NCBI GenBank assembly: GCA_964016885.1
Contig: OZ024754.1
Location: 30,690,001 to 30,754,000 of the forward strand
Direction: 5' to 3'
DNA length: 64,000 nt
Source: Eledone cirrhosa
Lineage: Eukaryota
Below the pieces are notes generated by a model. The model was not told the DNA's origin. It saw only the letters and a list, made by a program, of their open reading frames with translations, and did not search any database. Both the position numbers and the translations under genes were made by a program. This document shows positions 49,243-62,365 of this stretch, one piece after another; within the stretch, counting starts at the first letter, position 1, and each line of letters starts with the position of its first letter.

Positions 49243-49666
49243 GTAGGAGGTGAGTTTTATTGTAGTACAATAAAGCAATGCAGATATCGGATAAGAAGCA
49301 CTCTACAGTTTGTGGGACTGGAGTATGCATAATATAAGATCAAAAGATGGTTAAAGGAGTTCAATATATTTTATTATGCGCATTTCAAAAACAAACATCA
49401 TCAAACAATAATATTTGTGTTTTCATCAGATAAAACAGGAGAACATGATATGAAGGCTAAAAAAACACTTGTTGATAGTGCAGTTTTAAATCAACATATG
49501 TTGATTTAAAACTGCACTATCAACAAGTGTTTTTTTAGCCTTCATATCATGTTCTCCTGTTTTATCTGATGAAAACACAAATATTATTGTTTGATGATGT
49601 TTGTTTTTGAAATGCGCATAATAAAATATATTGAACTCCTTTAACCATCTTTTGATCTTATATTAT
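49243..49666 (-). mobile_element. (TA)n-flanked perfect palindrome element, family H, two hammerheads
   Basis: Arms 49329-49497 and 49498-49666 with no spacer (centre CATATG), plus a unique tail 49243-49328. Second copy at 61949-62365. Confidence 0.88.
49560..49626 (+). ncRNA. Type I hammerhead ribozyme motif (mirror 49369-49435 minus)
   Basis: ttttat-CTGATGA-aaac acaaatattatt..gatgatgtttgt tttt-GAAA-TGCGCA-TA-ataaaa. Confidence 0.82.
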
Positions 49667-49712
49667 ATATATATATATATATATATATATATATATATAT
49701 ATATATATATAT

Positions 49713-51937
49713 ATTTATTTGTTTCCTTTACCGGTTTCACAGTTTTTATACTTTTCTAAAGTAGAATTGTGATGGGGGGTTTGTGGTTTTTCTCGCATCT
49801 GGTTGGTGTTCGAATGTTACTTCTGTTTTATGTAGAAAAAGTGGCTCGAATTGCTAGGTTTTTTTTAGAAAAGTAATTTGGTTGGTTGATGACTGCCACG
49901 TGAATAAGTATAATAAATGTTGCACCAGTTCGCATTATAGAGTTCTTATTGTATTTACCTTTAAGAAAGGCGTGTGTGTGTTGGGGCTCAGATTGTTTTT
50001 TCATATATGAGTGAAATTTGGTTGGTTGATGACAGTCACGTGAATAAGGATATCAACTTTCACGCCAGTTCGTGTTTGAGGGTTCTTTTCACTTAAAAAA
50101 AGTGACTAAAAAAAATTGCTTTTTTATAAATTTAATTTGTTTGGTTATGACTGTCACATGAATAAGTACATTAAATTTCGTGCCAGTTCGTATTTGGGGG
50201 TTCTTTGTAGCCATTTAGAGAGTTTTGTGCCAAACAAAAGATAATGGTCAAGAAAAAATGGGATGGGGAGAATTGCTCTGGCTCAGTGAGTATGGCCGAT
50301 GTGTCAAAATTCAAACTTTCTATTGAAATAAAGAAAATAGAGATATATATTTTTATTTGTGTGCTGATGTGTGTGTGTGTGTAGGAAAATGATTCTGTTA
50401 GTAGAAATGGGGGGAGGGAGTTATGTGTGTGTATGTGTGTGTGTGGGAGGGGGGGTATGGTTAGCATATTAAGCTGTTAGAGTATTAACGTATGTTAAGG
50501 TCTATTTAGCTCTGGTTTTTATTTTCGAATATAGAAGAGGGTGTTATGTGTGTGTGTCTGTTTGAGTAGTTAGCATGTTATGCTGTTAACATAATGTATA
50601 TTAAACTATATTTAATGCTGGTCTATATTTTTGGATAAACATATTCTCCTTATTTATTGTATTCTGTTGTATTGTCAGTGCAAAGATAAAATGGGAAGAC
50701 TTGGAATTTGGCTGTCTTATCACTTGCGCATATGTCTAGATGCGCACCGAGTGGTATCTGTCTTGTGGTAGGGTCTCGTAATTGTTGGCAATGAATTGTC
50801 ATTCTGTTTCTGAGTGTGAGTTTAGTTTGCCCTATATAATCTTCATTGCATCTTTTACATTTAATGGCATAAAGTAAATTTTTTTATGAGCAAGTGAAGT
50901 GATTTTTTACAACAAAATCTTGTCCTGATTGAAATGTATACATGTTGCCTTCAATGAGGTGAGTGCAGGTTCCACAATTAGAGCGATAACATTTTTTGAC
51001 AGTTGGTTGTGGGTTTGTGGTAGGTAATTTGGCATTGGTGAGTAACGTTTTTAGTGATTTCGGTTGTCTTTTGTTTTTGATTATTTTGTGTGTTTCAAGG
51101 GCTTTTTTCATTCTTGGGTCTTGTTTCAATAGTGGCATGTTCTTGTGAATAGTGTTGTAAGCTTCTGCATTTCTTGGGTTGTGTGTTGAGATATATTGGA
51201 TGTACCTTGAATTTGTTTCTGTTTTCGTAATTCACCAATGCCTATTGCTTTAGCCCTTTCTATTCCATTATTTATTTGTAACGGTGGGTACTGTCTTTCG
51301 CACAGAATTTCCTTTAATTCTTGAAGTCTTTTATTTCGAGTTTCATAATTGGAGACAATTGTGCAAATTCTTCTTGCTAGGTTAAAAGAGATGTTCGTCT
51401 TTGTGTGCTTTGGATGGTTGGAGGTGAATAGCAGGTATTGTTTGGAATCTGTTGGTTTGTACTGGATGTCAGTTTCAATATTTGTGTCATTTTTTATGAT
51501 TAAGATGTCCAGAAATAGGAGTTGATCTTGACTGTATTCCATTGTGAATTGGATGTGGTTATTGATGCCATTAATTAAATTTTTGAAATCATTTAGTTGG
51601 TTGAGTGTGTGAGACCAAAGAATAAGACAATCATCAAAGTAGCGTTTCCAATTCTCTGATAAATATTTGTGGAAGTTCAATCCGTATTTTGATTTGGACT
51701 GTTCATATATCTGGACTTCCAAGTATGCCATAACTAAGTTAGCATAAGTTGGAGCGACTTTTGTACCCATCGCAGTCCCCGATATTTGCTTGTAAGTGCT
51801 GCCATCGAAATCAAAAAAGTTGTTCTGTAAAATAAATTTTAATCCCTCTGTGATGAAGCTTTTTTCTATTCTGTCAGGTATCTCATTGGGATATTTCTCT
51901 AGCCAGAATCCTATTGCTTGTAATCCGTATTGGTCTG
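49713..51937 (-). mobile_element. 5'-truncated Penelope-like element (RT + Cys linker + GIY-YIG endonuclease; Neptune-like), frameshifted
   Basis: GTAMGTKVAPTYANLVM, WKRYFDDC, FLDI; KCYRSNCGTC linker; NLLYAIKCKRCNEDYIGQT..LRNRM..H and FIQKYRPALN ending at about 50600. (TA)n on both sides. Hammerhead 3' half GAAACCGGTA at 49729-49738. Confidence 0.92.
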
Positions 51938-51971
51938 TATATATATATATATATATATATATATATATATA

Positions 51972-52115
51972 TATTTATTAAAATAACAGATTAAAGTTTA
52001 AGCTTAAATTTAATCTGTTATTTTAATAAATATTTGCTCTACGGTTCTTATATATTGGATATATATTTATCCTTATTGAGCCCTCTTTGGATTTTAGTCT
52101 TCAAATTTATTATTA
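51972..52115 (+). mobile_element. Short (TA)n-flanked fold-back element
   Basis: Palindrome 51972-52033 centred on AAGCTT, plus a unique tail. Confidence 0.55.
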
Positions 52116-52165
52116 TTACTATATATATATATATATATATATATATATACACATATATCAGTATA

Positions 52166-52467
52166 CACTGAGGATGAAAAACTCAGAGCTGTATGGGAGC
52201 CTCCCAAAAGTCAGCTCAAAAGTGACACAGAGGAGATTGAGGTTAGCTGGACATGCTCACCAACACCCAGAGTTGACATTGCACTCAGTGCTCCTTTGGG
52301 AGCCCCTACATGGACACACTAGAAGAGGAAGACCAAGGTTAACGTATGTTGATGCCCTAAGGACAGACACTGGTCTGTTGGAGACGCAGGACATGGCAGC
52401 GATAATGAGGGACAGAGACAGCTGGAGAGAAATCGTCCATGGATCTCGGGAATTTTACCCGCCTTAG
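52166..52467 (+). mobile_element. 3' fragment of a distinct RTE/RTEX-like LINE
   Basis: QRRLRLAGHAH...LLWEP.HG..RRGRPRLTYVD.L..DTG...RD.WR, bounded by (TA)n. Confidence 0.75.
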
Positions 52468-60342: not shown

Positions 60343-60989
60343 TGGATGTCTTTCCTAACACCAACCCCTTTACTCAGTGTAGTGGATGTCTTTCCTAACA
60401 CCAACCCCTTTACTCAGTGTACTGGATGTCTTTCCTAACACCAACCCATTTACTCAGTGTAGTGGATGTCTTTCCTAACACCAACCCCTTTACTCAGTGT
60501 AGTGGATGTCTTTCCTAACACCAACCCCTTTACTCAGTGTAGTGGATGTCTTTCCTAACCCTAACCCCTTTACTCAGTGTAGTGGATGTCTTTCCTAACA
60601 CCAACCCCTTTACTCAGTGTAGTGGATGTCTTTCCTAACACCAACCCCTTTACTCAGTGTAGTGGATGTCTTTCCTAACCCTAACCCCTTTACTCAGTGT
60701 AGTGGATGTCTTTCCTAACACCAACCCCTTTACTCAGTGTACTGGATGTCTTTCCTAACACCAACCCCTTTACTCAGTGTAGTGGATGTCTTTCCTAACA
60801 CCAACCCCTTTACTCAGTGTACTGGATGTCTTTCCTAACACCAACCCCTTTACTCAGTGTAGTGGATGTCTTTCCTAACACCAACCCCTTTACTCAGTGT
60901 AGTGGATGTCTTTCCTAACACCAACCCCTTTACTCAGTATACTGGATGTCTTTCCTAACCCTAACCCCTTTACTCAGTGTAGTGGATGT
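60343..60989. repeat. 40-bp minisatellite x16 derived from the RTE/SINE tail
   Basis: TGGATGTCTTTCCTAACACCAACCCCTTTACTCAGTGTAG at an exact 40-bp period. Confidence 0.95.
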
Positions 60990-61065
60990 ACTTTAAAAGT
61001 AGGCCAAGGAAGATATGACAGAAGTCAACCAAAGAGGATATAATATAGGTAGACCAAGGAAGTAA

Positions 61066-61290
61066 TGGTGGTGGGGGACCAAGGGTGATATGGCAGTGGG
61101 GGACCATGGGTGATATGGTGGTGGGGGACCAAGGGTGATATGGTGGTGGGGGACCATGGGTGATATGGTGGTGGGGGACCAAGGGTGATATGGTGGTGGG
61201 GGACGATGGGTGATATGGTGGTAGGGGACCAAGGGTGATATGGTGGTAGGGGGCCAAGGGTGATATGGTGGTGGTGGGTAACGAAGGGTG
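61066..61290 (+). repeat. 25-bp G-rich minisatellite GGGGGACCAAGGGTGATATGGTGGT
   Basis: About 8 units. Confidence 0.9.
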
Positions 61291-61729
61291 ACGTGGTAGA
61301 AGTAGATCATGGATGATATGGTAGAGTTAGACGATGGATGATATGGCAAGGAAGAGATATCAAAGATAAAATGATTCAAAGGTGATAGACTGTTACATGG
61401 TTAAGGAGAAGACAATTTTTGGAAATAAGCAAATTAGAAGACAAATAAAACAGTAGTAGAGCTGAAATACCTGGGAAGGATGTTGTTTCATTAGAAAAAA
61501 TAAAAAGGAGAGGATGAAGATGTATATGATGAATAAGTTGAAATTTTAGAAGCCATGGAAAATGTAAAAATTTAGTTTGGAGTAGAATTAGGAGAAAAAT
61601 AAATAAAGAGATGATTAATAGCTTATAGTTAGAATCTAAGAGTGAAGAACTTGAGAGGTTTCATAGGATGAACATAGTACTAAGAACTGGAAAATATAAC
61701 GTTGCAAACTTGACTGTCACCACTGAATA

Positions 61730-61768
61730 TGAACCTGAAGATTGCGAAAGCATGAAAGTACTTGTTCA
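61730..61768 (+). ncRNA. Minimal type I hammerhead ribozyme (39 nt, family B)
   Basis: tgaac-CTGAAGA-t tgc GAAA gca t-GAAA-GTAC-TT-gttca. GNRA-capped stem II, palindromic AAGTACTT stem III. Confidence 0.82.
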
Positions 61769-61948
61769 ACTAACATTTAACATTTAATATTCTACCATAC
61801 TATTTCATTATAATATCATTATAATTTTAAAGGATTGTAAATAAAACGAGTAAATCAGACAAAGTTAGAATTCTCTATATTAATTTAATCTTCTATACAC
61901 AATCATACACACTCGTGTATATTTATATATATATATATATATATATAT

Positions 61949-62365
61949 GTAGGAGGTGAGTTTTATTGTAGTACAATAAAGCAATGCAGATATCGGATAA
62001 GAAGCACTCTACAGTTTGTAGGACTGGAGTATACATAATATATAAGATCAAAAGATGGTTAAATGAGTTCCATGTATTTTATTATGCGCATTTCAAAAAC
62101 AAATATCATCATGCAATAACATTTGTGTTTTCATCAAATAAAATAGGAGGACATGATATGAAGGTTAAAAACACTTGTGGATAGTGCAGTTTTAAATCAA
62201 CATATTGATTTAAAACTGCACTATCCACAAGTGTTTTTAACCTTCATATCATGTCCTCCTATTTTATCTGATGAAAACACAAATGTTATTGCATGATGAT
62301 ATTTGTTTTTGAAATGCGCATAATAAAATACATGGAACTCATTTAACCATCTTTTGATCTTATAT
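61949..62365 (-). mobile_element. (TA)n-flanked palindrome element, family H (second copy)
   Basis: Arms about 62040-62200 and 62205-62365. Intact hammerhead at 62260-62330 (+); the mirror copy has one core mutation. Confidence 0.88.

Follow-up and report, generated by a model that had tools for sequence, protein, structure and literature searches.

The genome of the octopus Eledone cirrhosa harbours two copies of a short palindromic repeat, family H, in the 64,000-nucleotide stretch analysed here (hereafter the window; contig OZ024754.1 of assembly GCA_964016885.1, positions 30,690,001 to 30,754,000 of the forward strand, with positions counted below from its first letter). Each copy is quite probably a short, 5′-truncated, head-to-head insertion of the pseudo-long-terminal-repeat (pLTR) end of a Penelope-like element (PLE), and the second arm likely arose by fold-back of the complementary DNA (cDNA) during insertion. 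As the open reading frame (ORF) of a parent element was not found, membership among the PLEs is assigned by anatomy only. The copies are best filed as a new family with an already known PLE insertion structure.

Two diverged copies, each a near-perfect palindrome, had been reported in a preliminary description of this DNA, and for the arms this is borne out. Copy 1 possesses 169-bp arms with 0 mismatches (100% complementary) and no spacer, its centre turning from CAACAT directly to ATGTTG. The left arm (49329-49497) carries the sense unit on the minus strand, and the right arm (49498-49666, plus strand) is an exact inverted copy without the tail. Copy 2 possesses 163-bp arms (62038-62200, minus strand, and 62205-62367, plus strand) with one mismatch (62137/62268) and a 4-nt spacer, CATA, at the turn (62201-62204). 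The two copies, the only ones in the window, are 92% identical over ~440 bp. The palindrome does not cover the whole length of either copy, since each has a single-copy extension on its left, of 86 nt in copy 1 (49243-49328, minus strand) and 89 nt in copy 2 (61949-62037, minus strand). In copy 1 this tail would correspond to the 3′ end of the sense unit and to the first start of reverse transcription, as suggested by PMC8557442 and PMC11167929. Both ends of each copy are bordered by (TA)n, the presumed target microsatellite, which was found at 49219-49242 (tailed end) and 49667-49714 (tail-less end) for copy 1, and at 61924-61948 (tailed end) for copy 2, whose right arm merges into (TA)n up to ~62391. 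The earlier description had included neither an element class nor the hammerhead motif described below, the one-sided extension or the (TA)n at both ends. In both copies an ATG at the arm/tail boundary opens a frame of 29 codons that runs to the element end (49243-49329 and 61949-62035, minus strand). This frame gave no match to the N-terminal profile of related PLE proteins, and could be the start of a PLE ORF or a product of chance.

Differences between the copies are mirrored within them. The left arms of copies 1 and 2 differ by 12 substitutions and a 2-bp indel over ~161 positions, and the right arms by 11 substitutions and the same 2-bp indel, likewise over ~161 positions. The 11 substitutions (11/11) and the indel are present in both arms, and only position 62137 is private to one arm. 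Within the copies, 0 and 1 arm-to-arm differences were observed, versus ~12 expected if the arms had aged independently since the copies split (P ~8e-5). In line with the preliminary description, divergence in the two window copies is thus 0 and 1 within copies against 11-12 substitutions and the indel between them. Because the differences are mirrored, sequence comparison supports the derivation of both arms of each copy from one template, at or near insertion. Ten of the fourteen substitutions of copy 2 were also found as variants in the contigs of an outside run, X1, and would therefore be family variants and not decay in place; the remaining four include the private 62137. It had been proposed that the inverted arm was copied from the same molecule at insertion or homogenised later. 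The single template agrees with the first part of this proposal, but homogenisation by conversion is disfavoured, since other palindromes in the window have diverged arms.

Each arm of family H carries a type I minimal hammerhead motif, a putative ribozyme. Its layout comprises an 8-bp stem I, CUGAUGA, a stem II of 3 bp, a mismatch and 12 bp, GAAA, and a palindromic helix III (AUGCGCAU). A descriptor scan matched three of the four arms, at 49367-49437 (minus strand, copy 1 left arm), 49558-49628 (plus strand, copy 1 right arm, with the CUGAUGA core at 49566 and a predicted cut after 49620) and 62260-62330 (plus strand, intact in the copy 2 right arm). The fourth arm, the left one of copy 2, departs at core C3 only (UUGAUGA; private mutation 62137). 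None of 5000 dinucleotide shuffles of an arm matched the descriptor. Differences in stem II between the H copies either keep the pairing or are located in the loop. In family F2, a related one (17871-18137 and 56905-57082), three of four inner stem II pairs show compensatory changes. Two copies of the palindromic helix III cofold at -12.5 kcal/mol, which resembles the PLE hammerheads that act as dimers (PMC4209133). The sense of the hammerhead is directed outward from the centre in both arms, so the arrangement is head-to-head.

The hammerhead in a pLTR-like unit, the inverted 5′-truncated head-to-head copy, the one-sided tail and the (TA)n target are all features of PLEs. PLE insertions are described with an inverted 5′-truncated copy beside the pLTR, a tail of 30-40 bp that is often at one end only, and a bias to (TA)n (PMC8557442), and palindromes are reported at their inverted junctions (PMC3846280). 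Apart from its longer tail, family H is similar in these respects to endonuclease-positive PLEs (Penelope/Poseidon, Neptune, Naiad; PMC8557442, PMC3846280), and its unit of ~170-255 bp compares with pLTRs of 181-218 bp in Adineta vaga (PMC8557442, PMC3846280). Unlike these elements, family H has no ORF between or beside the repeats, and two copies that are 8% diverged have a common junction. The pLTRs of PLEs carry minimal hammerheads that act as dimers, and pairs on opposite strands, 100-700 bp apart, are reported in Schistosoma mansoni (PMC4209133). The H motifs share with the metazoan ones the CUGAUGA/GAAA/UH core, the long helix II and the short palindromic helix III, and with those of S. 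mansoni the pairing on opposite strands. They differ from the hammerheads of PMC4209133 in a helix I of 8 bp instead of 4-5, and in having nothing unpaired between positions 9 and 10.1. Animal non-LTR (long terminal repeat) retrozymes are also short and non-coding, with a type I hammerhead and an inferred origin from PLE pLTRs (bioRxiv 10.64898/2026.07.22.740005). However, these are head-to-tail tandems, whereas the H copies are head-to-head inverted dimers with a tail, in which 123 nt separate the turn and the predicted cut. A literature search that left most subscription papers and Repbase entries outside its scope found no PLE family that is palindromic, lacks an ORF and folds at a fixed point.

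The window contains eight further insertions that have inverted arms and are extended on one side. Most are flanked by (TA)n; their arms measure 28-102 bp and are 79-100% identical. Including family H, six of the ten inverted-arm junctions are symmetric with a spacer of 0-4 nt, over arm lengths from 28 to 169 bp. Family J (57941-58147 and 21893-22057) consists of a palindrome and a 67-73-nt tail in (TA)n. Its copy at 58 kb has a type I hammerhead in both 67-bp arms and turns at the base of stem I; in the copy at 21.9 kb the turn is placed ~21 nt further along and the hammerhead core is lost. The differences between the two J copies are largely mirrored. In family K (6951-7173 and 61680-61929), one copy is palindromic, its 62-bp arms flanking a spacer of 52 nt, and the other is without an inverted arm; this single-arm copy possesses a minimal hammerhead at 61730-61768 and is the immediate left-hand neighbour of H copy 2, with a single (TA)n run between them. 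Families L (8349-8701 and 58792-59269) and M (58374-58575 and 34172-34547) have an inverted arm and an extension, with spacers of 23-148 nt. Their junctions differ between copies, the arms of M are only ~80% alike, and no hammerhead motif was found in either family. Two short palindromes between (TA)n runs, at 18154-18305 and 51975-52119, have 31- and 28-bp arms and one-sided extensions of 81-90 nt, with no second copy in the window. Single-arm inserts bearing a hammerhead were also found in (TA)n, at 17871-18137, 56905-57082 and 38863-39125. The first two of these are the copies of family F2, which has a hammerhead architecture in common with family H and 5′ ends that differ, the copy at 57 kb starting ~70 nt before the core (69 nt in family H) and the copy at 17.9 kb reaching ~147 nt.

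Several observations weigh against a fold-back insertion of a PLE end. Four of the ten junctions have spacers of 23-148 nt, which simple fold-back does not explain, and no read or contig was seen spanning the centre of either H palindrome. The hammerhead descriptor was drawn up after the motif had been spotted by eye, and a search of 48000-64000 against Rfam (E<=10) gave no match to a hammerhead family. The Rfam matches at the H copies were sub-threshold microRNA hairpins, which is due to the palindrome. Pair 10.1-11.1 is A-U in family H, versus the G-C called highly conserved in PMC4209133, and the tail of 86-89 nt exceeds the 30-40 bp given in PMC8557442. No target-site duplication can be read, as both flanks are (TA)n. 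An ORF with a reverse transcriptase (RT) of telomerase-like type and a GIY-YIG domain is absent from the H copies. No autonomous parent of family H was found in the window: family H itself gave no match to the N- and C-terminal profiles of related PLE proteins (best E 0.13) and has no DNA similarity to the neighbouring Neptune-type PLE copy. With a very small database, tblastn paired the arm with a GIY-YIG C-terminus (E 0.004), a match that failed against a profile of 105 sequences and was discarded.

We infer all enzymatic steps of the fold-back scheme. An autonomous PLE, probably of Neptune type, would nick (TA)n with its GIY-YIG endonuclease. With uncleaved RNA as template, its RT would then begin at the tail's outer end and copy the tail and ~169 nt, ~255 nt in total. 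At a preferred stop, either the 5′ end of the RNA or a short natural palindrome, the 3′ end of the cDNA may snap back and copy itself. Copying would stop at the AT-rich arm/tail boundary and the product would be joined to the other (TA)n end, so that the tail stays single. Fold-back or self-priming, which the preliminary description had suggested, is the best mechanism for the H copies, but the idea is not new, as self-priming was proposed for PLE inverted junctions in 2013 (PMC3846280).

The main rival to fold-back is twin priming, which keeps the PLE origin and which we regard as a possible but clearly less probable route. Both target strands would be nicked and two cDNAs primed, one at the tail end and one at the arm/tail boundary; both would run to the 5′ end of the RNA and join at AT microhomology. 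For an anole PLE, the purified protein was shown to cut both strands and extend them, with starts at two internal sites that mark the limits of the tail; the protein is a predicted dimer, and hammerhead cleavage was dispensable for insertion in vitro (PMC11167929). Twin priming is the main rival because it accounts directly for the one-sided tail, and also for the four long-spacer junctions. Nevertheless, two independently truncated cDNAs should rarely match in length, and six of the ten junctions are symmetric to 0-4 nt at many arm lengths, which favours fold-back. Furthermore, arms of mixed subfamilies, which twin priming could produce, are absent in the two H and two J copies.

Regarding the point of the turn, the preliminary description held that both copies fold at the same place. 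Their turns do agree to 2 bp or less, but the generality of this claim is limited to n=2 copies, and the shared fold point could be of chance origin. Five sister families (J, K, L, M and F2) are also represented by two window copies each, and in none of them do the copies have a turn or 5′ end in common. A fixed fold point is thus not a general feature, and family H is one pair of six. If truncation were uniform over 100-255 nt, agreement within 2 nt would be expected in one or more of six pairs with a probability of 11-27%. That the turn reflects a defined end of the template or a hairpin primer, as had been suggested, is therefore not established. The H arms are the longest among the insertions, which would fit run-off at a template end. 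We lean towards a preferred stop in a non-palindromic template as the source of the shared turn; coincidence and, to a similar or slightly lower degree, a heritable palindromic master are both considerably less probable. The hammerhead cut was rejected as cause of the turn, since it is 123 nt away and the whole motif is kept in both arms. A 7-bp hairpin beside the turn of copy 1 (-3.9 kcal/mol) was also rejected as primer, as priming from it would leave a loop of 13 nt in place of the centre actually seen; in copy 2 this hairpin is disrupted.

Outside sequence data were searched for family H. The left half of the element was present in 20 of 24 listed runs from 15 studies, six of which hold half or more of its words; none of the 24 listed runs is on record as RNA. 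Family H was compared with the contigs of four of these runs (X1, X4, X5 and X7), of which X1 may be the same sample as the window. Matching contigs numbered 3377 in X1, 44 in X5, and one each in X4 and X7, the latter two matching copy 1 without any difference for 164 and 151 nt, respectively. The tail-less terminus, with (TA)n joined directly before 49329, was found in 18 contigs of X1 and one of X5, thus in two studies. Summed depth in X1, which is not a copy number, declines between the hammerhead region and the centre, from 1.2-1.8 million at 49333-49395 to 0.6-0.8 million at 49441-49494, and likewise in X5, which hints weakly at copies with shorter arms. No strand-change joint inside an arm was seen among the 10 of 78 loose ends listed, where contigs drop rare forms and 337 contigs overran an end. 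Exact-pattern scans detected no further H copies in metagenome contigs or viral contigs, and two bacterial matches in genome contigs, to a 22-mer only, were taken as chance. The outside contigs support family H as real and abundant.

It is conceivable, though rather improbable, that family H represents a non-autonomous mini-retroelement derived from Penelope, of very high copy number, which moves in palindromic form and passes on its fold point. The master would itself be a palindrome, and the cDNA would pass the centre by a few bases, snap back and regenerate the second arm in each generation; the arms would therefore be reset to identity while the family diverges. The turn common within 2 bp in copies ~8% apart, the mirrored differences, the abundance in X1, the sequence of copy 1 recurring without differences in X4 and X7, the lack of an internal strand-change joint among the loose ends inspected and the absence of an ORF linked to family H are consistent with such a cycle. 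On the other hand, the two copies are few, none of the five sister families shares its turn, and the falling depth in X1 and X5 points weakly to shorter arms. The RT would also have to read through a 169-bp RNA duplex.

Miniature inverted-repeat transposable elements (MITEs) and foldback DNA transposons are non-coding and have long inverted repeats, as family H also shows. A DNA transposon of this type, moved whole and with arms homogenised by gene conversion, would agree with the long inverted repeats, the lack of an ORF and the TA-rich flanks, but is very improbable here. The inverted repeat is not terminal on the side of the 86-89-nt extension, the relatives are single arms with ragged 5′ ends, and the hammerhead motif is left unexplained. 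All 12 shared differences are mirrored, yet in other palindromes of the window the arms are only 79-91% alike, and conversion therefore fails to maintain arm identity in this DNA. A fold-back chimera of library or assembly, for which the perfect palindrome of copy 1 and the lack of a centre-spanning read could speak, is hardly credible, given flanks that are not mirrored, the same two termini in both copies, the occurrence of the tail-less junction with (TA)n in two studies' contigs, the private mismatch of copy 2 and elements of the same build with diverged arms.

The origin of the inverted repeats and tails of PLEs is called open in PMC8557442. With ten such insertions in 64 kb, this genome would provide a large natural sample for telling fold-back and twin priming apart, by the symmetry of the junctions and by mixed arms. 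Elements of this kind risk being mislabelled as MITEs or microRNA hairpins and, if transcribed, H-type elements would form long double-stranded RNA. If the palindrome were heritable, family H would combine a MITE-like look with an origin in reverse transcription, and its numerous copies would hold a natural record, made in vivo, of the formation of PLE inverted junctions.

Next to copy 1, the window contains a 5′-truncated and frameshifted Neptune-type PLE copy (50610-51932, minus strand), with an RT, a CX4CxxC linker and, at the C-terminus, a GIY-YIG domain; its best named relatives are from bivalves. This copy shows that Neptune-type enzymes exist in this genome, and does not prove that they moved family H. 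Copy 1 and the adjacent Neptune ORF as a single element were ruled out by orientation and by the absent similarity. The Neptune-type element as a whole (49714-51932, minus strand) possesses a ~900-nt 3′ region with three degenerate repeats ~140 bp apart, in which no canonical hammerhead core was found on the sense strand. Fragments of a non-LTR retroelement are present at 15214-16292, 7731-8187, 35664-36347 and 57508-57978, with an RT followed by a PHD-like finger at 15214-16152. The segments 7700-8127 and 15942-16369 are 97% complementary copies.

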